Origin: an uncultured Acidobacterium sp.
Lineage (GTDB): Bacteria > Acidobacteriota > Vicinamibacteria > Vicinamibacterales > UBA2999
DNA: 64,000 nt
NCBI GenBank assembly: GCA_964513235.1
Contig: CAZEMI010000295.1
Coordinates: forward strand, 2,390-66,389
Direction: 5' to 3'
Part shown: positions 3,862-56,969 of the stretch, one piece after another
Layout of the letters: each line of letters begins with the position of its first letter
Numbering within the stretch: the stretch's first letter is position 1
Notes under the pieces: model-generated
Told to the model about the DNA's origin: nothing
Database searches by the model: none
What the model saw: only the letters and a program-made list of their open reading frames with translations
Made by a program: the position numbers and the translations under genes

Positions 3862-4125
3862 ATGCCGTCCGATTGGAACCCGCCGCCATCACGTCTGCTC
3901 GTCCGGGAAGATCTGGTGGAGCGGTTATCTAAGAACTTGATAGTCAGCCTGGAGGACGACCCGGTGGAAGCCTGGGCCAAGCGGAGAATCTGGAGGACCC
4001 TGCACTCGCGCAGCGACCTCGTTGCGGGCGCTCGCGAAGGGCGAGCCGACTCCCGCGAGGCGCCCGTCGTGAACTTGCGGCGGTGGCGTCGCGACCAGCT
4101 ATACGAGCGCCGGAGCTCTGAGTGA
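3862..4125 (+). CDS. Putative antitoxin (assigned by position only)
   Basis: 87-aa ORF preceded by GGAGGA. Its TGA stop overlaps the ATG of the downstream PIN gene (ATGA). I recognised no family from the sequence. Confidence 0.45.
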   Translation: MPSDWNPPPSRLLVREDLVERLSKNLIVSLEDDPVEAWAKRRIWRTLHSRSDLVAGAREGRADSREAPVVNLRRWRRDQLYERRSSE

Positions 4126-22752: not shown

Positions 22753-22778
22753 AAACGCTGCGACGTCAGAAAGCGAAC
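22753..22778 (-). promoter_or_regulatory. GTTCGY-N14-GCGTTT motif, site b
   Basis: GTTCGCtttctgacgtcgcaGCGTTT on the minus strand; 95 nt upstream of the giant-gene ATG (22657). Confidence 0.45.
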
Positions 22779-22866: not shown

Positions 22867-22892
22867 AAACGCCGAACCCGTTGAAAGCGAAC
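22867..22892 (-). promoter_or_regulatory. GTTCGY-N14-GCGTTT motif, site c
   Basis: GTTCGCtttcaacgggttcgGCGTTT on the minus strand. Confidence 0.4.
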
Positions 22893-23029: not shown

Positions 23030-23055
23030 AAACGCCGGCGGCGATGAAAGCGAAC
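23030..23055 (-). promoter_or_regulatory. GTTCGY-N14-GCGTTT motif, site d
   Basis: GTTCGCtttcatcgccgccgGCGTTT on the minus strand. Confidence 0.4.
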
Positions 23056-26184: not shown

Positions 26185-26210
26185 AAACGCCGTACCCGGT
26201 CTGTGCGAAC
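26185..26210 (-). promoter_or_regulatory. GTTCGY-N14-GCGTTT motif, site e
   Basis: GTTCGCacagaccgggtacgGCGTTT on the minus strand; 45 nt upstream of the ATG at 26139. Confidence 0.45.
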
Positions 26211-26225
26211 GCGGGAATTTCCGCC

Positions 26226-26251
26226 GTTCGTTTCACAGCGCGCTGGCGTTT
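26226..26251 (+). promoter_or_regulatory. GTTCGY-N14-GCGTTT motif, site f (back-to-back with site e)
   Basis: GTTCGTttcacagcgcgctgGCGTTT on the plus strand, pointing at the small ORF at 26259/26295. Confidence 0.4.
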
Positions 26252-26550
26252 TAAACGAGTGCGGAGCACGCCCTTGCGCCGTCACGGACGACGGATGACT
26301 GCCGGGATCCGCGGCTGTGCGCTCGCGTTAGCCGGTCTCGCCGTTTCCGGCGCCGCGGCGCAGGCGGGCGCCAGCTACGTGATCGGCGCAGGACGTGCTC
26401 GCGATCAGCGGCTTCGATCACGCGAGCCTGTCCGGCAGATTTACGGTGGAAGGTGAGGGGTCGTTCAGCTTTCAGCTGCGCGCCGGGGGCGCACGGTGCG
26501 CCAATTCGAAAGCGGGCTGAAGTAGTTGCGTCGGGGATCGATGCGCGCGG

Positions 26551-29541
26551 CTACCGGCGGCTGCCGGTGAGCGCGCGCAATTCCTGATCCCAGTTGAGGA
26601 CGACGTCGATGTGCGTCACCGGCGATCGATCGCGCGGATCGCGCACCAGCAAGAACCGGCGGCCGTCGGCGCTGATGTCGTAGCTGCGCACTGAGGCGAG
26701 CGCGAGGTAGTCGCCAGACACGACGCGACTGGGCCGCGACAGCACCACGCGCGTGTCGCTGGCGAACTTCACCACCATGATCGTCAGCCCGTCGGGCTCG
26801 TCCGATCGCGCGTAGTAGAGCCGCCCGCCATCGCGCGACCACACCGGTCCGGTCCCGCCGTCGGTTGAAACCTGGTACACGGTCTGCGCTGTCGGATACT
26901 CGGTGATGTAGACCTCGTCGCGGCCAGACTCGTTCGAGCTGTACGCCATCCACCGTCCATCCGGAGAGAACTCCGGATGATCTTCGCGCGCGTCCGTGCG
27001 CAGGAACACACGCGGCTTGCGATCCTTGATGGACAGCACCCAGATGTCGTTGTCGGTAGTCGGGCTGGTCTCGACGTAGGCGAGCTCCGACGCGTCGGGC
27101 GACCACGAGCCGGCCCATTGATCGCGAGGTCCTTCCAGCAGCACATGCGGCGCGGCGCTCCCGTCGGTCGGCATCCAGAACAAGTTGTAGACGCCGCTCG
27201 GCGACAGCCGGCCAAAGACGATTCGCGCGCCGTCGGTTGACCACAATGGCCACAGCCCTTCGGTAATGCGGCGGCGCACCTGGCGCGCGAAGTCGAACGC
27301 GCAGACGAACGGACGGCCACCGGTCCAGCACGTGAACAGCGCCGACAGCCCGTCCGGCGACACGTCGGGGCGCATGTACGCGCCGTCGTCGACGCCGGTG
27401 GGTGAGCTGCGGCCGTCGGCATCGACCCACAGCAACGTACGTGATTCATCCGGGAACACCGGACCGGGAACGTAGAAGAAGGTGCGCCCGTCTGTCGAAA
27501 ACGCGAACTGTGCCGCGCCGACGTTGAGCTGATTGCGGTAGCTGAACAGCGATTGCATGACGCCGTCGAGCAGCTTCAACGGCGGACCCAGCGCGGTCAG
27601 CGTCGACGGGTCAAAGGCCATCGCCATCAACTGGCCCTGCCTCATGAACACGAGGTGACCCGTGCCGACGTAGCGGCCGTCCGAGGCATCCTTCAGGATC
27701 ACGCGCCGCTCGCCCGTATTGAGCCGCTTCGCGATCAGCGTCGTCGACGCCGCGGCGACGCCCGAGACGGCGGTGAACAACACGGTCTCGTTGTCCGGCA
27801 GCACATGCGGCAGCCGGTGCGCGAACTCCGCCTCGGCGTCGTCCAGTCGCGTCAACTGTGTTGGCGCGCCACCAGACGCGTTGACGCTCCACAGCCCGCC
27901 CGCAAATCGCCCGAACACAATCTCCGATGTTCCGCGCCACGCAATGCCGTAGACATCCGACTCCGCGAACCGCGGCACGACCGTGCTGGCGCCGGGTGGG
28001 CGCACTCGCCGAACGACTTCGGTCACCGTCGTGGCCTCGCCGCCGGTTGACGGAACTATGCGAATCAGGTTCCCGGTGACAAAGGCCAGCGAGTTGCCGT
28101 CGGGCGAAAACGCCGGGCTCGACGCGCCGTCGGTCTCGTCGAGCGGTTCGGCCGTCGATTCCGTCAGCCGGCGAATGTAGATCTGCCGGGCCGTACCGGT
28201 CTGGCCGACGAACGCCAGGCGGTTGCCATTGGGCGAGACGGTGAACGCGGTCGAGAGCGGTCGATCGAACGCCGGATCCTCTTTCAGGTGCGCAGCGGGC
28301 AGCAGCGGCACGACCAGCTTGGTCACCATCGGGGGGGCCGCGCCGCCGGCGAATCGGCCGAGCGCGGCAACGCCAAGGCCGGTCAGTGCGGCGAGCGAAA
28401 CGGCAACAGCCGCCGCAATCTTGGACCACCGCCGCCGTGCTTGTGGCAGCGCGCAGGCGCCCTGCAGCGCGCAGGCTTTCGCCAGCGGCGCACGCGGTGT
28501 GTGATCGACCAGCGCGGCAGCCAGATCGGCCGCCATCTCGGATACGTGTTCGTATCGCTCGCCCGGATTGTGGTGCGTCGCGCGATCAATCGCGAGTCGC
28601 AGGCTGACCGGCACGTCGGGCAGCAGATCCTTGACCTGCTTGGCGCGCCGGTCCCAATGAATACGCCGCACTTCGCCGAGCGTCCGCCCCATGACCGGGT
28701 ATCCGCCGGTCAACAGGTGGAACAACAGCACACCCAAACTGTAGATGTCGCTTCGCGGCGTCGCGTCCTGCCCCTCGAGCAGTTCCGGAGCCGCATACAG
28801 CGGCGTTCCGGGGAAGGTCATGCCCAGGACGGCGTTGTCGTCGGTGAGGTCGAGCCCTGTCCCGAAGTCCATCAGGACCAGCCGCCCGCCCCGCTCGCGC
28901 ATCACGTTCTGCGCCTTCAAATCGCGATGCACGAGCCCGGCGCGATGCACCGCGCTCACGGCGTGGCCCAACTCGACGCCCAGCAGCGCCGTCTCGCGTG
29001 TGCTGAAAGGGCCCGCCGTGGACACAATCTGCTCGAGGGTGCGCCCCTGGATGAACTCCATCCAAATCCCGACGCGGCCCGCGATTAGATCGGCGCCATA
29101 GATCGTGGCGACGTTTGGATGGTTGAGCCGCGCCATCATCGAGGCCTCGCGGATCACTGCGGATCCGACGGCCGCCTCCGAACATCGATCGCGCAACAGC
29201 TTCAACGCGACTTGGCGCGACAGGTGCGGATCCCAGGCGCGAAATACCTCGCCGTTGGAACCTTCGCCGACGCGTTCGAGGATTTCGAGTCGTCCCCAGT
29301 GCCACGGTTCGCCCTGCCGCGCGAGCTCGGCCGGCTTGTTCTGCTCCACCAGCGTTTGATCCACCAGCTTGGCCATCCGCCGATGGAAGTCGCCGACCGC
29401 GTCGAGCGTTCTCAACTGGCGGACCGCCTCGCTTTTTGAGTGCGACGATTCGGCGGCGCTCCAATTGATGGGATCGCCGTCCGCAACTGCCGCGGCGAGA
29501 TCGACCAATGAATCCGGATCCGCCTCGGGTCTATCGGACAC
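26551..29541 (-). CDS. Transmembrane Ser/Thr protein kinase with C-terminal extracytoplasmic TolB-like (PD40/WD40-like) beta-propeller repeats
   Basis: - Hanks kinase motifs: VALKLL, HRDLKAQNV, MDFGTG, YAAPELL.
- One TM segment (WSKIAAAVAVSLAALTGLGVAAL).
- About 580 aa of repeated ..SPDG..(L/I)(A/V)(F/Y).. propeller blades.
- I trimmed the ORF-track start (29601) to the GTG at 29541, which sits 7 nt after GGAGGAG and overlaps the sigma-gene stop by 11 nt. Confidence 0.9.
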   Translation of the reverse strand: MSDRPEADPDSLVDLAAAVADGDPINWSAAESSHSKSEAVRQLRTLDAVGDFHRRMAKLVDQTLVEQNKPAELARQGEPWHWGRLEILERVGEGSNGEVFRAWDPHLSRQVALKLLRDRCSEAAVGSAVIREASMMARLNHPNVATIYGADLIAGRVGIWMEFIQGRTLEQIVSTAGPFSTRETALLGVELGHAVSAVHRAGLVHRDLKAQNVMRERGGRLVLMDFGTGLDLTDDNAVLGMTFPGTPLYAAPELLEGQDATPRSDIYSLGVLLFHLLTGGYPVMGRTLGEVRRIHWDRRAKQVKDLLPDVPVSLRLAIDRATHHNPGERYEHVSEMAADLAAALVDHTPRAPLAKACALQGACALPQARRRWSKIAAAVAVSLAALTGLGVAALGRFAGGAAPPMVTKLVVPLLPAAHLKEDPAFDRPLSTAFTVSPNGNRLAFVGQTGTARQIYIRRLTESTAEPLDETDGASSPAFSPDGNSLAFVTGNLIRIVPSTGGEATTVTEVVRRVRPPGASTVVPRFAESDVYGIAWRGTSEIVFGRFAGGLWSVNASGGAPTQLTRLDDAEAEFAHRLPHVLPDNETVLFTAVSGVAAASTTLIAKRLNTGERRVILKDASDGRYVGTGHLVFMRQGQLMAMAFDPSTLTALGPPLKLLDGVMQSLFSYRNQLNVGAAQFAFSTDGRTFFYVPGPVFPDESRTLLWVDADGRSSPTGVDDGAYMRPDVSPDGLSALFTCWTGGRPFVCAFDFARQVRRRITEGLWPLWSTDGARIVFGRLSPSGVYNLFWMPTDGSAAPHVLLEGPRDQWAGSWSPDASELAYVETSPTTDNDIWVLSIKDRKPRVFLRTDAREDHPEFSPDGRWMAYSSNESGRDEVYITEYPTAQTVYQVSTDGGTGPVWSRDGGRLYYARSDEPDGLTIMVVKFASDTRVVLSRPSRVVSGDYLALASVRSYDISADGRRFLLVRDPRDRSPVTHIDVVLNWDQELRALTGSRR

Positions 29542-30148
29542 GTTCCATCTCCTCCGCAAGCTTGACCAGAGCCCGCGCGACCAGCATGCGTGCCGCATCA
29601 CGGGACGGTTTTTTCAGCAGGGTGGCGATCTCGGCGTAGCTGTGGCCCAACTCGAGGCGTGCGATCACCGCTTGGCGCTCCTCGTCGTTCAGCCGGTTCT
29701 GCAGAGCCGCTTCATAGCGTTCGAGGGCCTCACGGCCAATCGTGTCTTCCAGAGGCGAGGGGGCGCCATCCTGAATTCCCGTGTCGAGCATGCCGATCGG
29801 CGGCCGGCGCGTGGCATTTCTCTTCTGATCCTTGATCCGGTTGATGACGCCCTGGCGCAGGTACGCCAGCAGCGCACCTTCGCCGAGATACTCAAAGCGT
29901 TCGATGTGCTTGATCGAATGGAGCAGCGTCTCCTGCACGAGGTCGACCGTCTCCATCAGGTCGCGGCTCCATCGAGGCAGACGTCCACTCGCCCACCGCA
30001 AAAGGGCTGGCAAATGCCGGGCATACAGGGCCTCCAACGCGGCCTTGTCACCCGCCCGCGCTCGCTCAATCAATAGCGGCGACGCATCAACGGGCGGACG
30101 AAGTTCCTGGGCCGCGGGCGGCGCGGGGTCTCGGGGGGATTGCACCAT
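29531..30148 (-). CDS. ECF-type (group 4) sigma-70 family RNA polymerase sigma factor
   Basis: 205 aa. Region 2 reads ..LEALYARHLPALLRWA...DLVQETLLHSIKHIERF. Region 4 is an HTH: ..LNDEERQAVIARLELGHSYAEIATLLKKPSRDAARMLVARAL. No regions 1.1 or 3 are present. Confidence 0.9.
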   Translation of the reverse strand: MVQSPRDPAPPAAQELRPPVDASPLLIERARAGDKAALEALYARHLPALLRWASGRLPRWSRDLMETVDLVQETLLHSIKHIERFEYLGEGALLAYLRQGVINRIKDQKRNATRRPPIGMLDTGIQDGAPSPLEDTIGREALERYEAALQNRLNDEERQAVIARLELGHSYAEIATLLKKPSRDAARMLVARALVKLAEEMERVR

Positions 30149-30199: not shown

Positions 30200-30262
30200 G
30201 GGAGTTTCATAATGTGAGCTAACTTCAGTTCAAATGCAATCAAACATTAAAGAAATTCTGGC
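30200..30262 (-). promoter_or_regulatory. AT-rich spacer upstream of the sigma gene, with a weak hairpin/T-run after the 186-aa gene; candidate sigma-70-type promoter region
   Basis: A local drop in G+C is visible by eye. On the minus strand it reads ..ggccgagtgcggccagaatttctttaatgtttgattgcatttgaactgaagttagctcacattatgaa.. I could not fix exact -35/-10 hexamers. Confidence 0.3.
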
Positions 30263-30280
30263 CGCACTCGGCCCCTGAAC

Positions 30281-30841
30281 CTACCGGCTCACCGGCGTGC
30301 GATTGATCAGCGGATACGCGCTTTTTACGCCAGGAACACTGGCAAATGCCCGCGCGACATCGATGGCCGCCAAGGGACTGGCCGCCCGCCCGACGAACGC
30401 ATTCGCCACGCCGGGCACTGCACGGATCTGCGTTAAATCTGCGGTGCCGGTGAGCTCCGCGGCCGTCATCCCCTCGCTGACGAGGATCGCCACATCCGAG
30501 GTGAGCAGCCTGCGGTTCGCAACTGTCCGTGGCTTGCCGGGCTCGTACAGAACGACGCGACCTCGGGTGCCCGGGTTCGCCGACTCCTGGTCCGCAAGCA
30601 ACTGGGCCAGGCGCGCGAGGGTCGTGACGTTACTGATACTCAAGACGGTGACGTCAGGCGAATTCGCGTCGCGGTTGTGCGCGCCGGTCCAATCCAGTTC
30701 CAGTTCGTCGAGCGCCACCACGAACGTGCGCGGCTCCGGACTGGGAACCGTGAGTTCCACGCCGGCCTGCACGAAACCGATGGCAGGCGTGACGGCAAAC
30801 AGGATGACCACCGCGAACCCACGAAGCACGAACATGCTCAT
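30281..30841 (-). CDS. Secreted 186-aa protein of unknown function (possible stand-alone subtilase-propeptide-like / external chaperone protein)
   Basis: I trimmed ORF 30281..31015 to the ATG at 30841 (MSMFVLRGFAVVILFAVTPAIGFVQAG, signal-like), which is preceded by GGAGGG. The longer reading runs through the 20-bp tandem repeats. Confidence 0.6.
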   Translation of the reverse strand: MSMFVLRGFAVVILFAVTPAIGFVQAGVELTVPSPEPRTFVVALDELELDWTGAHNRDANSPDVTVLSISNVTTLARLAQLLADQESANPGTRGRVVLYEPGKPRTVANRRLLTSDVAILVSEGMTAAELTGTADLTQIRAVPGVANAFVGRAASPLAAIDVARAFASVPGVKSAYPLINRTPVSR

Positions 30842-30871
30842 CTCACCCTCCGGCCAGTTGCGTACTGCGTA

Positions 30872-30900
30872 ATAATATGGCACAGCTAGCGGCCGCTGAA
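30872..30900 (-). promoter_or_regulatory. Candidate sigma-70-type promoter TTCAGC-N17-TATTAT for the 186-aa gene
   Basis: Read on the minus strand. The -35-like hexamer lies inside the first 20-bp repeat unit, and the -10-like hexamer lies about 30 nt upstream of the ATG. Confidence 0.3.
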
Positions 30901-30975
30901 TACATCGAGCGGACTCTGAATACACCGAGCGGACGCTGAATACACCGAGCAGGCGCTGAATACGCTGAATACACG
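30891..30975. repeat. 20-bp tandem repeat, about 4.3 copies (CTGAATACAYCGAGCGGACG consensus)
   Basis: Units start at 30896, 30916 and 30936, with a truncated/duplicated unit at 30956-30975. They lie between the divergent 186-aa and protease genes. Confidence 0.9.
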
Positions 30976-30980
30976 GTCTA

Positions 30981-31006
30981 AAACGCCACCGCGGGGAAAA
31001 ACGAAC
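30981..31006 (-). promoter_or_regulatory. GTTCGY-N14-GCGTTT motif, site g
   Basis: GTTCGTttttccccgcggtgGCGTTT on the minus strand; 139 nt upstream of the ATG at 30841 (the 186-aa / sigma / kinase gene string). Confidence 0.45.
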
Positions 31007-31044
31007 AGACCGCACCGCGCGGACGCTTTACGCGCACGCGTTCG

Positions 31045-31070
31045 GTTCGCTTTCCAGCGTCATGGCGTTT
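31045..31070 (+). promoter_or_regulatory. GTTCGY-N14-GCGTTT motif, site h
   Basis: GTTCGCtttccagcgtcatgGCGTTT; it ends only 11 nt before the ATG at 31082. Confidence 0.45.
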
Positions 31071-31081
31071 AGCCCACCGGG

Positions 31082-34000
31082 ATGCTGTCTCGCGTCGCTC
31101 GCTTTCTGCCTGTCCTTTTAGTCGTAGTGCTGCCCGGGATGGCGGCGGCGCAGGATACGACACCGCCTGACTCGTTCATCGACAGCGGGCCGCCCGCAGG
31201 CGGAACGATCACCGTGGGATCGGCGGCGTTCACATTCCACGCCACCGACGTCGACAACAGCGGCACGCCCACGACCGGCCTGGCGTGTTCCTACCGGCTC
31301 GCCCCCATTGAAACGTCCTACCGAACACCCGTGGCGTGCACGAGCACACCCGACAGCGGCGTCGCGCTTTACAATTCCCTCGAGAACGGGTCGTACACGT
31401 TCTTCGTGCGCGCGCACGATGCGGCGGGCAATGTTGACGTGTCACCGGCCACGCGTGCATTCACGGTGGATCGGGGCCCCGACCCGCTCCTCGAGAACCA
31501 GTGGCACCTGAAGTCGCGCACGATTGAGCTTGCGGGCTCGAATGTCCGCACCGTCTGGCCGAATTACATGGGCACCGGGGTGGCCGTTGGCGTCGTCGAT
31601 GACGGGCTTCAGCACACGCACCCCGACTTGCAGGCAAACTACTCGAGCGCGCTGTCGTGGGACTTCAACTTCAGCGATCCCGACCCGTCGCCTTTGAGCG
31701 GCAGCGCGCACGGCACGGCGGTGGCCGGCGTGGCCGCCGCGCGTACGGGCAACGCCATCGGCGTCAGCGGCGCGGCGCCGCGTGCCACGCTGGCCGGCAT
31801 GCGGCTGCTCGCCGCGGCCTTCTCGGACCTGACCGAAGCCGCCGCGTTCGGCCACCAGCCCGACGCCATCCACATTGTCAACAACTCGTGGGGCCCGACC
31901 GACGATGGCGCCACGCTCGAAGGGCCCGGATCGCTGGCGGCCGCGGCCATCGAGCAGGCGGTTCGCACGGGACGCGGAGGCCTTGGACGCATTTTCGTCT
32001 GGGCGGTTGGCAACGGCCGCAACGGCGTGGCCGAGGCGGACAACTGCAACTTCGACGGCTACGCCAACAGCCGCTTCGTGCTCTCGGTCGGCTCGGTCAA
32101 CGACCAGGCCACGCAGGCCGCGTACAGCGAATCGTGCTCGGCCCTTCTGGTGACCGCGCCCTCAAGCGACACCGACCCGGCGAGGCGTAAGATCACCACC
32201 ACCGATTTGGTGGGCGGCTTCGGCTCCGACGCCGGCGATTACACCAGCACATTCGGCGGCACCTCCGCGGCGGCGCCGCTGGTGAGCGGCACGGTGGCGT
32301 TGATGCTGGAACGGCGTCCCACGCTCTCGTGGCGCGACGTGAAGTACATCCTGCGCGAAACCAGCTCGCGCACCGCGATCGTCGACGGCTCCGCGAACTG
32401 GACCCCCGGCTCGCTCCCGCACAGCGAACGTTACGGCTTTGGTCTCATTGACGCCGAAGCGGCCGTGGCGAGGGCCGCCACGTGGACCAGTGTGCCGCCC
32501 GAAAGCGCGGTACCGGCGGCGACCGACATCGCCGGCATCGCGATTCCCGACAACAACACGCTGGGCTCGACGCGGACGATCGTCATCGGCAACGACTACG
32601 CCGGCTTCGTCGTCGAGCACGTGGAGATCCAGTTCAGCGCCACGCATCCGCGCCGCGGCGATTTGCAGGTGACGCTCGAGTCGCCCTCGGCCGTGACCAG
32701 CACGCTCGCGACGCTTCGTCCTTCAGACACGCAGGCGAACTTCTCCTCGTGGCGCTTCCGCTCGGTGCGCCACTGGGGCGAGCCGGCCAACGGCACGTGG
32801 CGCCTCACCGTCGCCGACCGCCGTATCGGGATGGTCGGGACGCTCAACCAGTGGACGCTGCGCATCTTCGGGACCTATCGCGGATACGTCCGTGGCCGCG
32901 TCACGGCTGGGGGCGCGCCGCAGCCCGGCGTCACGGTTCTGGTCTACGACAACCTGGGCGCGCTGGCTCGCAGCGCTTCGACCGACAGCGCCGGTGATTA
33001 CACGGTCGACGGGCTCGTGTCGGGCAACTACCGCGTGCACGTTGAGGCGCCCGCCGCCTACCTCCATCAGGCCTACAACGGCGTCACCTGCGTGGCGGCG
33101 TGCGCGGCGACCACGGGTCAGCTCGTCGCGGTCACCGAAGGCGAGGAAACCACCGGCATCAACTTCGCGCTGACACCGCGCGCGGCCATCTCGGGTGTGG
33201 CGCCGGCGACGGGATCGATCCTGGGCGGAACGCTGGTCGCGATTTCAGGCGTCGGGTTTACCACGCCGGCGACGGTCACCGTCGGCGGCACGGCGGCTAC
33301 CAGCGTCACGCTGGTAAGCAGCACGAGCATGACTGCCGTGACACCGGCCGGCGCGGCCGGCGCGGCAGACGTCACGGTGACCTTTGTGGACCAACAGACG
33401 GCGACGCTCGCGCAGGCGTTCACCTACGTGACGCCGCCGCCCCTCGTCCTCACGAGTGTCGTGCTCAGCCCGGTCAGTCCCGTGCAGGCGGGGACCACGG
33501 TGACGGTGGTTGCCGGGTCGACGGGCGGGACATCGCCGCAGTTTCAGTTCTGGCGCTACAACGTCGGCACGCTCCTGTGGTCGCTCGTGCGCGACTTCGG
33601 CGCGAGCGCCACCTACACCTGGCCGGCGGCGGAAGTTCAGGAAGGCACGTATGTCTTCCTCGTGTATGCACGAAGCGCCGGTTCGGCGTCGCCGTTCGAC
33701 AGCTCGTTCCAGACCGGCCATTTCATCGTGACCGCGCCGGTGCCGCCGGTGCGCTTGACGAAGGTCTCGATCACTCCGCGCTCCGTCATTCAACACGGCA
33801 CGACCATGGTCATGACGGCCACGGCGACCGGCGGGGCCGGCGTGATCGAATACGAGTTCAGGCGTGTGAACGCGGGCGCCGGCGACTGGACCGTGGTCAA
33901 GCCTTACAGCGTTCCGGGCGCCACGTTGACGTGGACGCCGGGTCTGCCCGAGGTGGGCGGCTACGTGTTCGAGGTGCGCGCGCGCAGCGAGGGCTCGACC

Positions 34001-37000
34001 TCGCCCCTGGAGGACGCTTACGGCAGCATTCTCGTCGTGGTGACCGCGAATGCGCCGGCCGTCTTGACCGGCGTCAGCACGACACCGTCATCGCCGGCCG
34101 CCGCCGGCACGTCCGTCACCTGGCGCGCGCATGCGAGCAGCGGCGTGGCGCCGCTCGAGTACCAATTCTGGCGCCACCACGAAGAGTCGCAGACCTGGTC
34201 GCTGGCGCAGAATTTCTCCACCGCCGCGACCTACACGTGGGCCACCACCGCGTCCGATGCCGGCACCTACGTCGTCCAGGCGCGCGTGCGCAGCACGGGA
34301 TCGATTGCGGCGTACGAGAGCCTCTATCAAACCGGACGATTCAACCTCAGCAACGGCCCGTCTCCCGCCGTGATCACGTCGATGATTCCCAGACCGAGCG
34401 CTCCGGTGTCCCCCGGCACGGCGGTGACGTTGACGGCGCGCGCGACGGGTGGAGCCGCCCCGCTCGAATACCAGTTCTGGCACTACGACGCCACGGTCGA
34501 GAGCTGGGTGGTGTTGCGGGACTTCAGCATCAGCAACACGCACACCTGGACGGCGACGGCCGGCGTGCACCTGTTTCACATTCGCGTCCGCAGCACCGGA
34601 TCCACAAGCGTCGACAGTTCATGGACGAGCCCGTCGTGGTTCACGGTTGCCAGCGGCAGTCCGCCGCGCCTCACCGGCGTGACCGGGCCGGGCTCAACAG
34701 TCGCCGCGCCGGCGATGGCGACGTGGACGGCGCAGGCGACCGGCGGCGGTGACAACGAGTATCAGTTCTATCGCTACCATGAGCAGACCGGGCTGTGGGC
34801 GATGGTGCGGGAGTATGACGCCAGCGCGTCATACTCCTGGTCCACCGCGGCGACCGACGCCGGCACGTATCTCATCCAGGCGCGCGCCAGGCGTGCGGGA
34901 TCGGCTCTGCCATTCGAGAGCGTCTTCCAGACCGGCTGGTACGCCATCAGCGACGGTGCCGCCGCACAGCTCACGTCGCTGACTCCCAGCACGGGCGCAT
35001 CCGTTCAGCCCGGCAACACGGTGATCTGGACGGCCGTCTCGAGCGGCGCCGCCTCACCGGAGTATCAGTTCAGGCGCCTCGACGCGTCGACCGGCGAATC
35101 GGCCATCGTACAGGAGTTCGGTTCGAGCGCTCAGTACGCGTGGACGCCCGAAGTCACCGACATCGGGACCTACAAGTTCCAGGTCCGAGTACGCAAGGCC
35201 GGCGCCGCGACGTACGACCACTGGCTAGACAGCTCGTGGTTCGTCGTGTCAAACGGCGCCATTCCAGCAATTACCGGCGTGACCACGTCGAGTTCTCCGC
35301 TCACGGTCGGAGCCATGGCGACGTGGACGGCGCTGGCGGCAGGCGGCGTGGCCCCGCTCCAATTCCAGTTCTGGCGGCATCACCTGGAATCGAAGACGTG
35401 GTCGCTCGAGCAGGATTACTCGGCGTCGAATGTCTTCACGTGGGTGACCACGAGCAGCGACCCCGGCACGTATGTGATGCAGGTGCGGGCACGCAGCGTC
35501 GGCGCCGCGGCGCCGTTCGAGAGCCTGTTCGACGCCGCGGCGGTCGTCGTCCAGCCGCTTCCGCCCGAGACCACGATCGAGTCGGCGCCCGCCGCCACGA
35601 CCCTCGACACGAGCGCCACCTTCACGTTCGCCGCCAGTGAGGCCGGCTCGACGTTCGAATGTTCGCTCGATGCGGCCGCGTTCAGCGGGTGCGTGTCGGG
35701 CGTCACCTACACGGGGCTGAGCGTGAGCGCGCACAGCTTCAGCGTGCGCGCCATCGGCGCCGCCGGCAGCATCGACCTGACGCCGGCCACCCACGCCTGG
35801 ACGATCGTTCCGCCGGACATCACTCCGCCGGACACAACCATCGACTCCTCGCCGTCCACCTCCACGTCGACGTCGGCGACGTTCACGTTCTCGGCGAGCG
35901 AAGGCGGCTCGACGTTCCAATGTTCGCTCGACACCGCCCCCTATGCCGCCTGCACGTCCCCCAGGACGTACACGGGGCTCAGCGCCACCGCGCATACCTT
36001 TGCCGTGAAGGCGACCGACCTGTCGGGCAACACCGACCTCACGCCTGCAACTCACGCGTGGACGGTGCTGCCGCCGGACATCATCCCGCCGCAGACAACG
36101 ATCTCGTCCTCGCCGCCGGCGACGACCATCTCGACGAGCGCGACGTTCGAGTTCACTGCCGACGAGGCCGGGTCGACGTTCGAATGCAAACTCGATAGCG
36201 GATCGTACAGCGCGTGCACCTCGCCGCGGACCTACACCACCCTCGCCGACGGCGCGCATACGTTCGAGGTGCGTGCCACCGACGGCGCCGGCAACATCGA
36301 CCTGACGCCCGCGACGCACAACTGGACGATCGTGGCGCCGGACTGCGGCTCGCCCGTCACCTTGATCGCCACCGGCGACAGCTGGCTCGAGCAGAGCAGC
36401 CCGACGAGCAACAAGGGCACTGACTCGCCGCTGAAAGTGAAATCGCAGAGCGGGAACGGCAACATGCGCGCGCTGGTCCGGTTCGCGATGCCGGCGATGA
36501 CGCCGGGATGCCTCGTGCAGTCCGCCACGCTGAGCTTGTTTGCGGCGTCAGCCACGACCGGCCGCACGCTGAACGCCGTGCGGATAACGGGGTCGTGGAC
36601 CGAATCCGTCGTGACCTGGAGCAACCAGCCCGCGACCGCCGGCACGGAGGCGGCGGCGGCCGCGGCCGCGGCATCCGGCAACGTGGAGTGGACGGTCACC
36701 TCACAGGTGCAGGCGATGTACGACGCAGCGATCCTGAACGGCTTCCTGGTCCGCGACGCCACCGAGAACGGCCCGGGCAGCGAACAGGAGTTCCGCAGCC
36801 GGGAGGATGGCCAGACGCCGCCCACCCTCGAGGTGTCGTTTGTCGCCTCGAGCACGCGGTCGTCCGGAGGCCCCGCGGCGCCGCCGCCTCCCGCGCCGGC
36901 GCCGCTCGACGCCTGCGCGGCGCCGATGACGCTATCGGCGTCCGCTGATGCGTGGCTCGATCAGAACAGCTCGTCGACCAACAAGGGCACCGATACGATT

Positions 37001-37435
37001 CTGAAGGTCCAATCCAAGCGGCCGCGCGACAACTTCCGCGCGCTGTTGCTGTTCCCGTTGCTTCCCGGCATACCGGCAGGCTGCGTCGTGGAGTCGGCAG
37101 TGCTCAGGCTGTATGCCGCGTCCGGCAAGAGCGGCCGCTCCCTGGAGGTGCTGCGCGTGACGTCGCCGTGGTCCGAGGACCTCGTCACGTGGAAGAGCCA
37201 GCCGCGCATCGATCACCTGCCTGCCGCATCAACGGCGTCCGACCTCGGCTGGCTGGAATGGACCGTCACGCCGCACGTGCAGCTGATGGTCGCCGGCGCA
37301 TCCAATCACGGCTGGATGGTGCGTGACGCGAGGGAGAATGGCGATGCCGAGCAGCAGTTCCACGCCCGCGACAAGGGCGAGCATCCGCCCGAGCTGGTGC
37401 TGACCCTGGCGCCGGCGCCGGGCACGCAGCGGTAG
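31082..37435 (+). CDS. Secreted multidomain kexin/furin-like S8 serine protease (2,117 aa)
   Basis: Domain order, read from the translation:
- Signal peptide (FLPVLLVVVLPGMAAAQ).
- One Ig-like repeat.
- S8B catalytic domain: VGVVDDGL (Asp), HGTAVAG (His), NSWGPTDDG, GGTSAAAPLVSG (Ser).
- P/homo-B domain: ..HPRRGDLQVTLESPS..GTWRLTVAD..GTLNQWTLRIFG.
- CarboxypepD_reg-like domain.
- IPT/TIG domain.
- Seven ~100-aa repeats.
- Three Ig-like repeats.
- Two DNRLRE-like modules. Confidence 0.9.
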   Translation: MLSRVARFLPVLLVVVLPGMAAAQDTTPPDSFIDSGPPAGGTITVGSAAFTFHATDVDNSGTPTTGLACSYRLAPIETSYRTPVACTSTPDSGVALYNSLENGSYTFFVRAHDAAGNVDVSPATRAFTVDRGPDPLLENQWHLKSRTIELAGSNVRTVWPNYMGTGVAVGVVDDGLQHTHPDLQANYSSALSWDFNFSDPDPSPLSGSAHGTAVAGVAAARTGNAIGVSGAAPRATLAGMRLLAAAFSDLTEAAAFGHQPDAIHIVNNSWGPTDDGATLEGPGSLAAAAIEQAVRTGRGGLGRIFVWAVGNGRNGVAEADNCNFDGYANSRFVLSVGSVNDQATQAAYSESCSALLVTAPSSDTDPARRKITTTDLVGGFGSDAGDYTSTFGGTSAAAPLVSGTVALMLERRPTLSWRDVKYILRETSSRTAIVDGSANWTPGSLPHSERYGFGLIDAEAAVARAATWTSVPPESAVPAATDIAGIAIPDNNTLGSTRTIVIGNDYAGFVVEHVEIQFSATHPRRGDLQVTLESPSAVTSTLATLRPSDTQANFSSWRFRSVRHWGEPANGTWRLTVADRRIGMVGTLNQWTLRIFGTYRGYVRGRVTAGGAPQPGVTVLVYDNLGALARSASTDSAGDYTVDGLVSGNYRVHVEAPAAYLHQAYNGVTCVAACAATTGQLVAVTEGEETTGINFALTPRAAISGVAPATGSILGGTLVAISGVGFTTPATVTVGGTAATSVTLVSSTSMTAVTPAGAAGAADVTVTFVDQQTATLAQAFTYVTPPPLVLTSVVLSPVSPVQAGTTVTVVAGSTGGTSPQFQFWRYNVGTLLWSLVRDFGASATYTWPAAEVQEGTYVFLVYARSAGSASPFDSSFQTGHFIVTAPVPPVRLTKVSITPRSVIQHGTTMVMTATATGGAGVIEYEFRRVNAGAGDWTVVKPYSVPGATLTWTPGLPEVGGYVFEVRARSEGSTSPLEDAYGSILVVVTANAPAVLTGVSTTPSSPAAAGTSVTWRAHASSGVAPLEYQFWRHHEESQTWSLAQNFSTAATYTWATTASDAGTYVVQARVRSTGSIAAYESLYQTGRFNLSNGPSPAVITSMIPRPSAPVSPGTAVTLTARATGGAAPLEYQFWHYDATVESWVVLRDFSISNTHTWTATAGVHLFHIRVRSTGSTSVDSSWTSPSWFTVASGSPPRLTGVTGPGSTVAAPAMATWTAQATGGGDNEYQFYRYHEQTGLWAMVREYDASASYSWSTAATDAGTYLIQARARRAGSALPFESVFQTGWYAISDGAAAQLTSLTPSTGASVQPGNTVIWTAVSSGAASPEYQFRRLDASTGESAIVQEFGSSAQYAWTPEVTDIGTYKFQVRVRKAGAATYDHWLDSSWFVVSNGAIPAITGVTTSSSPLTVGAMATWTALAAGGVAPLQFQFWRHHLESKTWSLEQDYSASNVFTWVTTSSDPGTYVMQVRARSVGAAAPFESLFDAAAVVVQPLPPETTIESAPAATTLDTSATFTFAASEAGSTFECSLDAAAFSGCVSGVTYTGLSVSAHSFSVRAIGAAGSIDLTPATHAWTIVPPDITPPDTTIDSSPSTSTSTSATFTFSASEGGSTFQCSLDTAPYAACTSPRTYTGLSATAHTFAVKATDLSGNTDLTPATHAWTVLPPDIIPPQTTISSSPPATTISTSATFEFTADEAGSTFECKLDSGSYSACTSPRTYTTLADGAHTFEVRATDGAGNIDLTPATHNWTIVAPDCGSPVTLIATGDSWLEQSSPTSNKGTDSPLKVKSQSGNGNMRALVRFAMPAMTPGCLVQSATLSLFAASATTGRTLNAVRITGSWTESVVTWSNQPATAGTEAAAAAAAASGNVEWTVTSQVQAMYDAAILNGFLVRDATENGPGSEQEFRSREDGQTPPTLEVSFVASSTRSSGGPAAPPPPAPAPLDACAAPMTLSASADAWLDQNSSSTNKGTDTILKVQSKRPRDNFRALLLFPLLPGIPAGCVVESAVLRLYAASGKSGRSLEVLRVTSPWSEDLVTWKSQPRIDHLPAASTASDLGWLEWTVTPHVQLMVAGASNHGWMVRDARENGDAEQQFHARDKGEHPPELVLTLAPAPGTQR
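33430..35550 (+). repeat. Seven ~100-aa Ig-fold repeats with an (E/Q)YQF(W/R)R...W.......Y.W......G.Y...(V/A)R.R core (Y_Y_Y-like)
   Basis: Counted in the translation. The family assignment is from memory and is tentative. Confidence 0.6.
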
Positions 37436-37489: not shown

Positions 37490-38830
37490 CTAGCGGTGAG
37501 TGACCGCGCGGGTGGGCGCCGTCGAGCGATGGACGGCGATCGCGGCAGCGACGGCGAAGAGCGCGGCGTTAGCGGGAATCTGCAAGCTGAAGTCGACGAG
37601 CTCCTGCAGACCGATGGCGGCGAGCGCCGCGATCGCGCCGATGCGCAGCCACGGCAGTTCCGCGTCCTGACGAAGGCGCGCGCGCACGGCACGAACGAAC
37701 AACGTGAAGACAATCAATACGGGAATGCCAACCAGGAGTCCGCCTTCCGCGGCCAGCTGCAGGTAATCGCTGTGGGCGGCGGAATAGTGATGTGTCAATG
37801 ACGGGTTGGCGTAGAGAATCGTCGCCGTGCCATAGCTGTTGACGCCGGTGCCGGTGGCGGCGAAATCGCGGATGATGCCGATGGCATCCCGCCATGCGGT
37901 GGCGCGCTCGCGCAGATCGACGCGCGCCGTTGAGGTGAATCGGCCGTTGATTGCGTCCAGACCCACCCACCCAACGGCGCCGGCCGGCAGCGCAAGGAGG
38001 AATGCCACGATCACCGCGCGCCGCCACCCCCGCTCGCCGGCCACGAAGCAGATCGCGATCAGTGCCAGGGCGGCGGCAAGCGACGCCATCGCCGATCGCG
38101 ACATCGTCATCACCAGCGCCAGAGCCATCACCGCCAGGCCGAACGCGCAGAGTACGATGCGCGCGGCCGGCGGCGAGGCGCACCACAGCAGGCGCCGGCG
38201 CCAGCCGCGGAGGGCGACCAGCCGCGTCGCGGCCAAACGCTCGCAGAGCCGCCCGAGGCCGAGCGGAATCGCCATCAGCATCCAGCCGCCAAAATGGTTG
38301 CGGTTGACAAAGGGCCCGAACGGCTCGCTGACGCCTTGGGGCTGCCAGAAGCCATAAATGCGCCCATCGCTGCCGCGCTCTTGCGCGATACCGATGAGCG
38401 CAATGCCCACGCTCAGCACGAACACTGCATCAGCCAGCCGGCGCGCGTCACGCGGCGTCAGCACTGCCGAGAGCCCGATGAAGAGCAGCGTGAACGACGA
38501 AAAGAAGAGGAGACCCCTGGAGGTTGCGGCGGGATCGATCGACAGCGCATGGGCCGGCGGGGGCCGCGCAACGGCCGCTGCCAGCGTGTATCCGAGATCG
38601 AGTTCGGTCAGGAAACGGCCGGCCGCGGGCGAGATGGTGTCGAGGACGGGGGCCGGAAGCGGAAGGAGCTGAGCGAGGATTGAGACGAGAACGCAGGCAA
38701 GCGCTGCGCTCAGAGAGACGGGCAGGGTCTGGGCACGAATTCCGCGCCAGATACTCGCAGCGCCCACAACGACTGCGGCGGCGACCAGTGGCGCCCAAGC
38801 CCATGGATACACCGCCCCGAAGGCCAGCAC
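37490..38830 (-). CDS. O-antigen ligase / Wzy_C family membrane protein
   Basis: 446 aa, polytopic. It has ..RNHFGGWMLMAIPLG.. and ..HSDYLQLAAEGGLLVG.. motifs typical of O-antigen ligase-like proteins. Confidence 0.75.
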   Translation of the reverse strand: MLAFGAVYPWAWAPLVAAAVVVGAASIWRGIRAQTLPVSLSAALACVLVSILAQLLPLPAPVLDTISPAAGRFLTELDLGYTLAAAVARPPPAHALSIDPAATSRGLLFFSSFTLLFIGLSAVLTPRDARRLADAVFVLSVGIALIGIAQERGSDGRIYGFWQPQGVSEPFGPFVNRNHFGGWMLMAIPLGLGRLCERLAATRLVALRGWRRRLLWCASPPAARIVLCAFGLAVMALALVMTMSRSAMASLAAALALIAICFVAGERGWRRAVIVAFLLALPAGAVGWVGLDAINGRFTSTARVDLRERATAWRDAIGIIRDFAATGTGVNSYGTATILYANPSLTHHYSAAHSDYLQLAAEGGLLVGIPVLIVFTLFVRAVRARLRQDAELPWLRIGAIAALAAIGLQELVDFSLQIPANAALFAVAAAIAVHRSTAPTRAVTHR

Positions 38831-38877
38831 GGCCCAGGCGAGGAGAGCGGCGGTCGCGACCGTGATCAGTGTGGGGC

Positions 38878-40458
38878 TTAATGCAAATGCGCGACGACGT
38901 TCCGCGACCGAACGCGGGATCCTGCATCGCGCGGCACGGCCCGCCGCGGCGTCCGGTCATCGCTGTTGGTCTGCGCCAGAGGACGAACCCCGTTCCAGCG
39001 TCGAAGCAGCACTTGCGTGAACGTGCGGTCGATCTCACCCGCCATACCCTCGCCGATCCAGCAGACCGCCGATACCGGGCACTCGGCCGCCTGGCGATGA
39101 TGCAGCGTCAGCGTGCCGGAGGGCAGCGGAAACACCATCCGCCATTGCGGCGTCGCCGGCTCGGCGTCGCTGCGAATCCATTCCCACGTGCCGCCACCCG
39201 TGGCCCACACGCGAACCGGCGGCCCGAGCGCGTGACAGACGTCGGTGTCGCGAAGCCGCACGATCGCTCTCGAGAAGGTCGAACGCTCGAGCACGAAACG
39301 GACAGCGTCGAACAGCTCCGCCGTGCTCGACGCGGCGTGGAGCCGCTCCCTGGCCTCGCGCATGGCGACTGCTGCCGCCACCAGCTCGCGTTGATGACGC
39401 AGCGGCCGCCACATCGCGACGGTCAGCGCGCTCAGTTCCGGAATACGCAGCTGCTGGATGCCGACCAGCGCGCACACGCCCAACATGGCGAACGCCAGGC
39501 CGACCGGCTTGCCAGTGGGGTTCATGAACAACAGCGACACCAGGCCAAGCAGGGCGGCAATCGCATACAACACCAGAACCGCGGAACGGTGCGACAGGCC
39601 GCGCTCGATTAGCGCGTGATGGATATGACGACGGTCGGCCGCGAAAATCGGCCGGCCGCTCAGCACGCGCCGCACGATCACCAGCATCGTGTCGACGATC
39701 GGCAACGCCAACGCGAAAACGGGCATGGCGATTGCGAATGCGGCGGCGCTCTTCTGGGAAGTATGAATCGAGACCACCGCAAGCGTGAACCCGAGCAGGT
39801 AGCTTCCCGAATCGCCCAGAAAGATCGACGCCGGATTGAAGTTGTAACGCAGGAATCCGGCGCTGGCCCCGGCGAGTACAGCGAGCAGCAACACCGCGTC
39901 GGGCTGTCCGGTCACGAGCGACGCAAACAAGAGCGACAACGTGGCGAAAATCGCCGTGCCCGTGGCGAGCCCGTCGAGTCCGTCGATCAGGTTGAAGGCG
40001 TTGGTGATCCCGACGATCCACAGGACGGTTACGGGCAGAGAGAACACTCCGAACTCAAAGCCGGCGCCGTCGTAACTCCAGGTGTCGATGATTCGGAATC
40101 CGAGGAGCCACGCCAGCGCGGCGATGGCGATCTGCGCTCCAAGCTTCGTCCGGGGCGACAGGCCCCACAGGTCGTCCCACATGCCGACGGCGAGCATCAG
40201 TCCGGCCAGCGACAGAATCTGCAGTGTGGCGGCCTCCGGATTGGGCTGCCATTGCCCCGCGGCCAGCAACGTCGCAAGCGTCACGATCATTGCCAGGTAG
40301 ATCGCGAGCCCGCCGATACGAGGTGTCGGTACTGCGTGGCGCTTGCGGTGGTCGGGGACGTCGAGCCAGCCGCGCCGCCCGCAAAGAGCGCGGACACCGA
40401 CCGTGAGCGCCATCGACGCGCCGGCGGCAATCACGAACCCGATCAGATATTCAAACAT
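38878..40458 (-). CDS. Polyprenyl-phosphate sugar-1-phosphate transferase, MraY/WecA (glycosyltransferase family 4) type, with a long C-terminal cytoplasmic extension
   Basis: ..DHRKRHAVPTPRIGGLAIY.., ..NAFNLIDGLDGLATG.., multiple TM segments, then about 190 extra C-terminal residues. Confidence 0.85.
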   Translation of the reverse strand: MFEYLIGFVIAAGASMALTVGVRALCGRRGWLDVPDHRKRHAVPTPRIGGLAIYLAMIVTLATLLAAGQWQPNPEAATLQILSLAGLMLAVGMWDDLWGLSPRTKLGAQIAIAALAWLLGFRIIDTWSYDGAGFEFGVFSLPVTVLWIVGITNAFNLIDGLDGLATGTAIFATLSLLFASLVTGQPDAVLLLAVLAGASAGFLRYNFNPASIFLGDSGSYLLGFTLAVVSIHTSQKSAAAFAIAMPVFALALPIVDTMLVIVRRVLSGRPIFAADRRHIHHALIERGLSHRSAVLVLYAIAALLGLVSLLFMNPTGKPVGLAFAMLGVCALVGIQQLRIPELSALTVAMWRPLRHQRELVAAAVAMREARERLHAASSTAELFDAVRFVLERSTFSRAIVRLRDTDVCHALGPPVRVWATGGGTWEWIRSDAEPATPQWRMVFPLPSGTLTLHHRQAAECPVSAVCWIGEGMAGEIDRTFTQVLLRRWNGVRPLAQTNSDDRTPRRAVPRDAGSRVRSRNVVAHLH

Positions 40459-40471
40459 GGTGCGGAAAGCA

Positions 40472-41836
40472 TCACGGCGCGGCAGCAGACGGGATGGCGA
40501 GCCGTGCGCTGATGCGCGACGGCGCCTGCACGATGCTGGCGCGCCGGAGCGGCAGCAGCGAAAACAGAATGCCCAGGATGGTCAGTTGCTTGAGCACGCC
40601 GCCAAGCACCACCTCGAGGTCGCGGTCAACCTGGCAGACGCTGAAGGCCGTCAATACGAACAGCGTTGGTCCCGCGATCGTCCGCAGCGATCGGAGCAGA
40701 GTCGCGAGTGTCCCCAGGAAGAGGCCGAGGATCGCCATGCCGGTGAGACAGCTCCAGACGCCGCCGTGGAGATAAAAGTTGCCGAGATGGCTGATGCCCA
40801 CCGCCACTCGCCCTTGCGCCTCTGGCGAGACTCCCCAGAATTCCGTGGCGAAGCGTAAGCCCCACCCGATCTGCTTGTCGGCATAGGCGGCTCGAGGGAC
40901 AAACGCCGAGATGAGGACGTTCCCCCACAACGAGTCCGATTGATACGGAATCACCGACGGCACCAGCGACTGCGTCACGACCAGCGAGTCGAACCCGTGG
41001 AACCGATTCTGGATGGCGGCAACCGCCCACTGCGGCCACGTCAGGCCCGAATACTCTCGCGCGCGCGGCAGCGCCTCGAGGTACCCGATGCCGCCGCCGA
41101 GCCCGCGATCGGCGTAGGTCTTCATCGCGCCAATCCACAGAAACAACGGCAATCCGACGATCGCCACGGTCATCGCGATCCGGCGCGGTGACAGTTCCGC
41201 GCCGATGCAGTACCCAATCAGCGCAGCGAGGAGCGGCTGCAGCGTGGACTCGCGGGAGAGCGACAACCGATCGTCGACGACCAGCGTGGCTGCGACGACG
41301 ACCGCCGTCAGCCATGCCGCGCCGGCACGCGCGCCGGCGGGGCGCCGTCCGCACGTGAAGGCCATCGAAAACACACCCGCCAGGACCGCCCACCCCAGCG
41401 TCTCGATCGGCGTCGTCGCCCAATCGGGCAGCCCGATCTCTCCCTCTGCATTCAGGCGCAGTAATCCGTGGCAGATCATGCCGGCGCCGACGAGCGTCGC
41501 CGCCACGTCGAGCGACAGCGGCGTGATCTCCCGCGGCGACGATCTGCCGCACGGGATGATCGCCACGGCGAGCAGATAACCGACGATCAGGATTGCCAAC
41601 GACAGCGTCGTGAGCATCAGCGCGCCGAGGATCGCTGTGGCCGGCGCGGCGGCGACCCGCTCGTGCACGTCGAGCCAATCCGGCTGCAGGTGCAGCAGCG
41701 TCGCTCGCGTCAGCACATGAATGGCATACAGCACGAGTAGCGGCGACAGCAAGTCGATATATCCGCGCTGCAGGCGGCGTGAGGCATAGAGGCCTGCGAC
41801 GATCACGAGTGCGAGCGCGGCCAGTGCGAAGAACAC
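40472..41836 (-). CDS. Polytopic membrane protein, candidate repeat-unit polymerase (Wzy-like)
   Basis: 454 aa with 10 or more hydrophobic segments. The call rests on position inside the polysaccharide operon, with no diagnostic motif. Confidence 0.5.
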   Translation of the reverse strand: MFFALAALALVIVAGLYASRRLQRGYIDLLSPLLVLYAIHVLTRATLLHLQPDWLDVHERVAAAPATAILGALMLTTLSLAILIVGYLLAVAIIPCGRSSPREITPLSLDVAATLVGAGMICHGLLRLNAEGEIGLPDWATTPIETLGWAVLAGVFSMAFTCGRRPAGARAGAAWLTAVVVAATLVVDDRLSLSRESTLQPLLAALIGYCIGAELSPRRIAMTVAIVGLPLFLWIGAMKTYADRGLGGGIGYLEALPRAREYSGLTWPQWAVAAIQNRFHGFDSLVVTQSLVPSVIPYQSDSLWGNVLISAFVPRAAYADKQIGWGLRFATEFWGVSPEAQGRVAVGISHLGNFYLHGGVWSCLTGMAILGLFLGTLATLLRSLRTIAGPTLFVLTAFSVCQVDRDLEVVLGGVLKQLTILGILFSLLPLRRASIVQAPSRISARLAIPSAAAP

Positions 41837-41837
41837 G

Positions 41838-44404: not shown

Positions 44405-44406
44405 GG

Positions 44407-47887: not shown

Positions 47888-47938
47888 GAATTCTTCGTCC
47901 TCGGGGGAGAGCGAAACAGGTGTGTCAGTGCCGGGTGA

Positions 47939-49183: not shown

Positions 49184-49185
49184 CG

Positions 49186-50232: not shown

Positions 50233-50251
50233 GACCGGAAGATCGTGCCGG

Positions 50252-56943: not shown

Positions 56944-56969
56944 AAACGCCACGACCGCCCAAAACGAAC
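56944..56969 (-). promoter_or_regulatory. GTTCGY-N14-GCGTTT motif, site i
   Basis: GTTCGTtttgggcggtcgtgGCGTTT on the minus strand; 81 nt upstream of the wza-like ATG (56862). Confidence 0.45.

Follow-up and report, generated by a model that had tools for sequence, protein, structure and literature searches.

How does a secreted kexin-like protease mature when its own gene encodes no prodomain? The question is raised by two divergent genes, 240 bp apart, in a 64,000-nucleotide (nt) stretch of contig CAZEMI010000295.1 from an uncultured Acidobacterium sp. (the window; positions count from its first letter and signs denote strands). At the positions given by the first-pass annotation, one gene encodes a secreted kexin/furin-like S8 protease of 2117 amino acids (aa) (31082..37435, +) and the other a secreted protein of 186 aa (30281..30841, −), in which that annotation saw, with low confidence, a resemblance to subtilase propeptides. 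Such propeptides are textbook intramolecular chaperones, and they can also work in trans in vitro. Judged from sequence, homology of the small protein to true cis prodomains of kexin-like S8 proteases is near certain. The reading that we favour, and that we consider likely when taken as a whole, is that it is a split propeptide that acts in trans as a folding template and a product-like temporary inhibitor of the neighbouring protease.

A furin-like protease without a cis prodomain

The protease begins with a typical signal peptide, and its catalytic and P domains (31478..32875, +; residues 133–598) are those of a proprotein convertase. A phmmer search against PDB sequences aligns residues 7–466 of mature furin with residues 133–598 of the protease (E = 5.7e-87), followed by kexin (8e-79), whereas Aeromonas ASP reaches merely 1e-26. 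Pfam places Peptidase_S8 at residues 164–437 and the proprotein convertase P domain (PF01483) at residues 511–595 (E = 4e-25). The catalytic triad (D173, H210 and S395) and the oxyanion residue N311 are present and are kept in 116–120 of 121 aligned relatives. Residues D274 and D325, kept in 118/121 and 113/121 relatives, align with furin D258 and D306, the S1-pocket aspartates that accommodate a basic P1 residue. By its predicted triad, P domain and S1 aspartates the enzyme is a member of S8B, the kexin/furin-like group, and of the hallmarks compared it lacks only a prodomain in cis. C-terminal to the P domain, Pfam recognizes CarboxypepD_reg, TIG, many immunoglobulin (Ig)-like repeats and two CBM96 carbohydrate-binding modules, the last of these in the C-terminal region (36356..37432, +; top-scoring stretch, residues 1759–1919).

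The usual position of a prodomain is occupied by an Ig-like domain of the Y_Y_Y/Big_13 type (31151..31471, +; residues 24–130), part of which Pfam detects at about residues 89–130. No I9, S8_pro-domain or Fervidolysin_NPro model matches the protease in a Pfam scan, and the furin alignment begins only at residue 133. A cryptic prodomain within residues 24–135 was considered and rejected: BLASTP relates residues 24–130 to Y_Y_Y-like Ig repeats in the C-terminal part of the same protein (E = 1e-11), and there is therefore no hidden prodomain in this segment. The protease is thus organized as first described, with an Ig-like repeat following the signal peptide where a propeptide would be expected.

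A free-standing family homologous to cis prodomains

The divergent small gene encodes a protein with a signal peptide at residues 1–27 (30761–30841) and a C-terminal sequence ...AYPLINRTPVSR that ends in a conserved arginine, Arg186. Its start at MSMFVLRG... agrees with the alignment of three homologues and is preceded by GGAGG 5–6 nt upstream. Direct searches with the 186-aa protein gave no matches in Pfam, NCBIfam or PDB sequences, and a profile of its family likewise matched nothing among PDB sequences. A word-indexed search found the three homologues, and a full HMMER search with their profile extended the family to 128 cluster representatives. About two-thirds of these are free-standing secreted proteins of 180–260 aa (about 90 proteins of roughly 200 aa), marked by the signature motifs LALDExELDW, ANPG, LVLYExGxPR, TRRLLTREVA and PGVxxAYPLLKRxxxxR-stop. 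The remaining third or so are proteins of 600–2400 aa in which the match is confined to the N terminus. Domain scans of seven long members identified five S8 proteases, in which the S8 domain begins right after the matched region; four of the five also have a P domain.

The same module appeared when relatives of the protease were sought with its N-terminal 603 residues. Relatives with 54–63% identity come from Rokubacteria, Vicinamibacterales and further metagenome-assembled genomes (MAGs), and most of them pass from a signal peptide directly to DPLLExQWHLK. One kexin-like protease, P0030 (catalytic domain 56% identical), has about 190 extra N-terminal residues, and residues 30–186 of the small protein align with its residues 49–190 (BLASTP, 32% identity, E = 2e-20), the alignment ending at the last residue of the small protein. 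A further relative (P0019, 60% identity) is an incomplete sequence of the same fused type.

At the family level, an alignment of 43 free-standing sequences (A2) matches an alignment of 29 cis prodomains (A4) with 100% probability in hhalign (E = 4.3e-38), end to end over 152 columns. This makes the small protein a divergent representative of the subtilase-prodomain superfamily, of which fused and free forms exist, and the resemblance first noted with low confidence is borne out over the whole mature length of the family. Known models reach the cis forms more readily. The Pfam model Fervidolysin_NPro-like (PF22148) matches 6/29 of them (best E = 3.9e-9), and it is through these that the small protein is tied to PF22148; the furin-type S8_pro-domain (PF16470) weakly touches 4/29 (best E = 1.3e-3). 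ORF_2_N (PF18492), the model of the Aeromonas partner protein discussed below, touches 2/29 cis forms below threshold (E = 1.7e-4) and 0/43 free-standing members at E up to 1.

It could still be supposed that the small protein is an unrelated secreted protein that lies beside the protease by chance and resembles a propeptide only superficially, as the lack of direct Pfam, NCBIfam and PDB sequence matches and of a significant Foldseek match might suggest. The profile-profile match to cis prodomains, the pairwise match to a fused relative and the nine distinct loci at which a small gene lies directly upstream of a kexin-like protease (see below) effectively refute this, and we give it next to no weight. 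The free-standing prodomain may constitute a widespread unannotated family that has repeatedly been split from and re-fused to kexin-like proteases, and even joined to propellers.

An AlphaFold2 (AF2) model computed from the 43-sequence alignment (predicted local distance difference test score 89.9; predicted template modelling score 0.82) gives the mature small protein two alpha/beta subdomains. The predicted N-terminal subdomain has strands at residues 27–32, 38–50, 64–68 and 93–99 and a helix at 75–88, and the predicted C-terminal subdomain runs beta (110–121), alpha (127–130), beta (138–141), beta (148–152), alpha (156–167) and beta (172–181). The latter is the order of elements described for subtilase propeptides (PMC6993865).

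A C terminus at the processing site

We built a hidden Markov model from A2 and ran it on all proteins gathered in the analysis. Among 78 proteins of ≤300 aa that reach the end of the profile, 58 terminate in arginine exactly at its last position; most of the other 20 are pieces of fused genes cut off at contig ends. The same position in 49 fused proteins is the R of ...LARQQxKR, and the catalytic start ...PNDPLFxxQWHL follows 4–6 residues later. A kexin-like enzyme would release its prodomain by cleaving at the KR of the fused forms, and the free-standing protein accordingly reads as a prodomain that ends at P1. Given this end point and the conserved acidic S1 pocket of the protease, Arg186 is predicted to sit in the active site as a product mimic.

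A rival account makes the small protein an inhibitor only. The protease might fold unaided, and the small protein might keep it inactive at the cell surface or in the periplasm until it is secreted or a trigger acts, in the manner of the stand-alone propeptide-like inhibitors of eukaryotes. Potent stand-alone inhibitors with no shown chaperone role are known (POIA1, yeast PBI2, Arabidopsis SPI-1, TgMIC5 and Plasmodium SUB1-ProM; PMC6993865), and the conserved C-terminal arginine and S1 aspartates, which argue for occupancy of the active site, are silent on folding. The targets of those inhibitors, however, keep a cis propeptide of their own, whereas the partner proteases here have none, and the small protein takes the place of an orthologous cis prodomain. 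A third difference emerges from the gene arrangement in relatives.

Linkage to kexin-like proteases in relatives

The earlier proposal named recurrence of the gene pair in other genomes as a check, and the pair does recur. We scanned GTDB genomes and JGI metagenomes with an 11-sequence subset of the family and obtained 15 loci. A kexin-like protease lies directly downstream on the same strand at the distinct loci L004 (identical to L007–L010), L005, L006, L013 and L014, and in the first three of these distinct loci the small-gene stop and the protease-gene start overlap as ATGA or GTGA. From the side of the enzyme, all four propeptide-less relatives that were looked up (P0007, P0015, P0039 and P0033) have a family member immediately upstream, with a 4-nt overlap in three cases and a 24-nt gap in the fourth. 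Because P0008 is the protease of locus L005, five of five sampled propeptide-less relatives have a small gene directly upstream. Altogether the small gene directly precedes a kexin-like protease at nine distinct loci, and the linkage recurs in three of five long contigs from the lineage of the window itself (see below).

One-to-one translational coupling is more readily expected of a stoichiometric folding partner than of a regulator. We regard inhibition alone, with no part in folding, as unlikely. That the small protein is the partner of this protease seems to us very likely, and a dual role as chaperone and inhibitor is reasonably probable, if less so than the partnership itself.

A conserved cluster with a sigma factor and a kinase

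In the window the small gene is followed on its own strand by a gene for an extracytoplasmic function (ECF)-type sigma factor (29531..30148, −) and one for a serine/threonine (Ser/Thr) protein kinase of about 1000 aa with a PD40/Tricorn-like beta-propeller (26551..29601, −). The sigma factor matches PF04542 and PF08281, that is, sigma-70 regions 2 and 4 only, and scores above the cut-off of TIGR02937. We saw no obvious anti-sigma gene beside the sigma/kinase pair, an absence that was not checked in more depth. The window derives from a soil metagenome, and Vicinamibacterales MAGs supply the nearest named relatives of both the sigma factor and the protease.

The linkage of small gene and sigma factor is kept in relatives: at L002 and L003 an orthologue of the window's ECF sigma factor comes next after the small gene, and longer contigs of this subfamily were located through the sigma factor. 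Their conserved order is a divergent MASE9 histidine kinase, the small gene, the ECF sigma factor, the Ser/Thr kinase with its PD40/Tricorn-like propeller, as the third gene of the cluster, and one further gene. The succession small gene, sigma factor, kinase occurs in every long subfamily contig (L025–L028, L030, L031 and the contig of P0255), and the kinase gene lies directly after the sigma gene in the window and in these seven. The divergent neighbour in related contigs is usually a MASE9-PAS hybrid histidine kinase, with a sigma-54 activator nearby; the multi-pass membrane protein encoded divergently at L001–L003 is also a MASE9 histidine kinase. No copy of this kinase was found when we searched the window, where the protease gene takes the divergent place that a histidine kinase gene fills in other contigs.

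The further gene at the end of the cluster is, in L030 and L031, an orthologue of the window protease (1855 aa, 2580 bits) with the same Y_Y_Y/S8/P/CarboxypepD_reg/TIG/CBM96 architecture and no prodomain. On the P0255 contig it is again a protease orthologue (1943 aa), convergent and followed by a Wzy_C gene as in the window. In L025 it is an orthologue of the 5920-aa protein of the window, and L027 has nothing comparable to the protease within 10 kb. The small gene and the protease are thus linked in three of five long subfamily contigs.

These contigs invite a different explanation, in which the small protein is a co-opted signalling component of the sigma/kinase module (a secreted ligand, a protease-labile signal or a protein with some other target) and its adjacency to the protease is a by-product of regulon clustering. 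The order of small gene, sigma factor and kinase is conserved, the divergent neighbour in related contigs is a histidine kinase and not a protease, L027 has no protease nearby, and a prodomain-like module also occurs on non-protease proteins. Against it stand the protease orthologues of identical architecture, with the same upstream motif, in the clusters of three of the five long contigs; the coupling of small gene and protease outside the subfamily, with no sigma factor nearby; and the product-like C-terminal arginine, which a protease partner explains. We therefore hold a purely signalling role to be improbable and retain the split propeptide as the preferred reading.

A shared upstream motif

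The first-pass annotation had placed both divergent genes behind a motif, GTTCGY-N14-GCGTTT, in a back-to-back arrangement, and this is what we find. One copy, GTTCGTTTTTCCCCGCGGTGGCGTTT (30981..31006, −), is promoter-like and oriented towards the small gene; the other, GTTCGCTTTCCAGCGTCATGGCGTTT (31045..31070, +), is oriented towards the protease gene and ends 11 nt before its ATG. Because the same promoter-like motif precedes each gene, both should be made together. The motif is far more frequent in the window than expected, with nine exact copies against 1.1, and 0/100 shuffles reached the ten matches seen at ≤1 mismatch. The remaining exact copies are at 3755–3780 (+), 22753–22778 (−), 22867–22892 (−), 23030–23055 (−), 26185–26210 (−), 26226–26251 (+) and 56944–56969 (−), and a copy with one mismatch is at 40636–40661 (−). 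Wherever a downstream gene can be assigned the motif is oriented to it: the gene for the 5920-aa protein has three copies, and that for a 963-aa protein, the small gene, the protease gene and a Wza-like gene have one each.

The copy upstream of the small gene is kept in L001–L003 and L025–L031, back to back with a second copy that faces the divergent gene. Copies also stand before the L030 protease orthologue and before the giant-protein orthologue of L025. The motif was absent from 21 other loci searched. From this distribution we infer that the motif is a lineage-specific promoter or activator site that marks a regulon, and it is plausible that the adjacent ECF sigma factor reads it. Because the motif ends only 11 nt before the protease ATG, either the transcript has almost no leader or the site is something other than a simple −35/−10 pair. 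The protease ATG has no Shine–Dalgarno sequence in this interval (31070–31082), and in L030 the corresponding distance is 44 nt. The 5′ leader of the small gene, between motif and start codon, contains a 20-nt tandem repeat, AGCGGACGCTGAATACACCG (30888..30963, −; 3.8 copies, 89% matches), which was not seen upstream of the small gene in L001–L003. Directly 3′ of the small-gene stop codon is a terminator-like GC hairpin with a T-rich tail (30260..30273, −).

Proposed mechanism and points against it

Both the propeptide-less protease and the small protein have a signal peptide, and we propose that they are exported separately and that outside the cytoplasm the small protein would do in trans the job of a covalently attached propeptide. 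Its C-terminal tail would lie in the substrate groove like an autoprocessing product, with Arg186 in the S1 pocket formed by D274 and D325, and would keep the enzyme inhibited until the enzyme degrades the small protein and becomes active. Both would be produced together as members of a regulon for which the neighbouring ECF sigma factor and Ser/Thr kinase are probably needed.

Several points weigh against this account. Physical binding, help in folding, inhibition and the later degradation of the small protein are all steps that we infer. Some subtilases fold without a propeptide, so that a need for a chaperone cannot be assumed. The small protein matches none of PF05922, PF22148 and PF16470, and PF22148 is matched by just 2/43 free-standing members, at E = 0.017 or weaker. 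Seven loci have no adjacent protease within the available sequence (L001–L003, L012, L015, L016 and L027). They include the three closest homologues of the small protein, L001–L003, on 1.5-kb contigs; the gene downstream of the small gene encodes malate dehydrogenase in L012 and an FG-GAP repeat protein in L015 and L016. In P0158 (616 aa) and P0170 (1131 aa) an N-terminal prodomain-like module is fused to a Sortilin/BNR-type beta-propeller with no protease domain, and the module is therefore not exclusively a protease accessory. It may serve non-subtilase proteins, or mark substrates of the protease.

Foldseek searches of the PDB with two AF2 models returned no subtilase propeptide and no ORF2 (3WQB chain B), and the best matches were tandem RRM-type ferredoxin-like folds at a non-significant E of 0.02 or weaker. 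Because propeptides share this general ferredoxin-like topology, we count the result neither way; the predicted fold is compatible with a propeptide and is not decisive. The proposed comparison with propeptides and ORF2 thus had a mixed outcome: profiles connect the protein to cis prodomains, Foldseek against the PDB gave no significant match, and ORF_2_N matched 0/43 free-standing members.

A more far-reaching possibility, which we consider a long shot, is that in this lineage the consumption of the small protein by the mature protease is sensed, for example by the PD40/Tricorn-like propeller of the kinase. The idea rests on the position of the small gene at the head of the sigma/kinase cluster and on the motif common to the protease, 5920-aa, CBM96/beta-helix and exopolysaccharide genes. 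If true, it would couple maturation of the protease to sigma-factor activity and to production of a whole extracellular-matrix regulon.

Relation to known systems

The closest parallel is the Aeromonas ASP/ORF2 pair, in which ORF2 serves as chaperone and temporary inhibitor of the propeptide-less kexin-like protease ASP, and the C-terminal lysine of ORF2 lies at the catalytic centre of the Lys-specific enzyme (PMC5638518). Like ASP/ORF2 (PDB 3WQB), the pair in the window comprises a propeptide-less kexin-like S8 protease with a P domain and a small, separately encoded and exported partner from a neighbouring gene, and the last residue of the partner is basic in both, lysine in Aeromonas ORF2 and arginine here. 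The differences are as clear. The orf2 gene lies downstream of asp, whereas here the small gene precedes the protease gene in relatives and is divergent from it in the window; by E value, furin (6e-87) is a much nearer match to the window protease than ASP (1e-26) is; and an origin by splitting from a cis prodomain is, unlike for ASP/ORF2, documented here by fused relatives in the same clade. The precedent is best regarded as an analogy, and homology to ORF2 is not supported.

With the cis prodomains of bacterial kexin-like proteases the small protein shares the motifs LALDE..., LVLYE.G.PR, TRR.LT and PGV..A.PLL.R and the same end at a basic processing site. It differs from them in being free-standing, with its own signal peptide and stop codon, and because it is already 'cleaved' no autoprocessing step would be needed. 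The furin/kexin prodomain (PF16470) has the same role for the most similar catalytic domains and is carried by more distant bacterial relatives (44–51% identity); it is not matched by the window protein. Inhibitors of the I9 type (Pleurotus POIA1, yeast PBI2, Arabidopsis SPI-1, Toxoplasma MIC5 and Plasmodium SUB1-ProM) are, unlike the small protein, eukaryotic, and their targets keep their own propeptides. They are also single-domain and possibly convergent, whereas the window protein has an extra N-terminal subdomain.

A literature search of incomplete coverage returned no description of the free-standing family, and in the literature searched the sole natural propeptide-less subtilase served by a separate gene was ASP/ORF2, from Aeromonas and a few gamma-proteobacteria. 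The arrangement described here is apparently a second solution, independent of ASP/ORF2 and much more widespread, occurring in bacteria of soil and groundwater (MAGs of Rokubacteria/Methylomirabilota and a lineage that is probably acidobacterial). Here the prodomain has been severed precisely where it would be processed and retained as a separate gene, either translationally coupled to the protease gene or co-regulated with it. This extends known principles and introduces no new one. With fused, tandem and divergent forms coexisting in one protease clade, it offers a natural system for asking what the covalent attachment of a propeptide contributes. It also supplies an annotation rule for proteins now labelled hypothetical and not captured by current Pfam models, and a practical hint to co-express the neighbouring gene when producing furin-like bacterial enzymes.

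Other genes associated with the motif

The three motif copies between 22753 and 23055 precede a single 5920-aa open reading frame (ORF) (4895–22657, −), whose first 2000 residues contain CBM96, right-handed beta-helix/NosD and Ig-like domains. Upstream of it, a gene at 23248–26139 (−) encodes the secreted 963-aa protein, in which a NosD/beta-helix core is flanked by terminal CBM96 modules. This protein has the same Y_Y_Y-like Ig repeats as the protease and appears to be a regulon member that shares modules with it. The copy at 26226 (+) has no large gene downstream. Its sole candidate is a 65-aa ORF (26259–26456) with a signal-peptide-like N terminus, located in the interval that runs up to the 3′ end of the convergently oriented kinase gene.

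Beyond the protease gene, 37490–56862 (−) holds a long same-strand cluster of the exopolysaccharide type, with strongly positive AT skew and a motif copy before its first gene. That first gene is Wza-like (56047–56862, −) and is followed by a Wzc-like gene (53888–56050, −); a Wzy_C/O-antigen-ligase-like gene (37490–38830, −) belongs to the same cluster. At the other end of the window, the motif copy at 3755 lies upstream of a stretch of lower GC content (3862–4601, +) with ORFs of 87 aa and 159 aa. The 159-aa ORF resembles, by eye, a PIN/VapC-type toxin, and the gene after the L027 kinase is a PIN gene as well.

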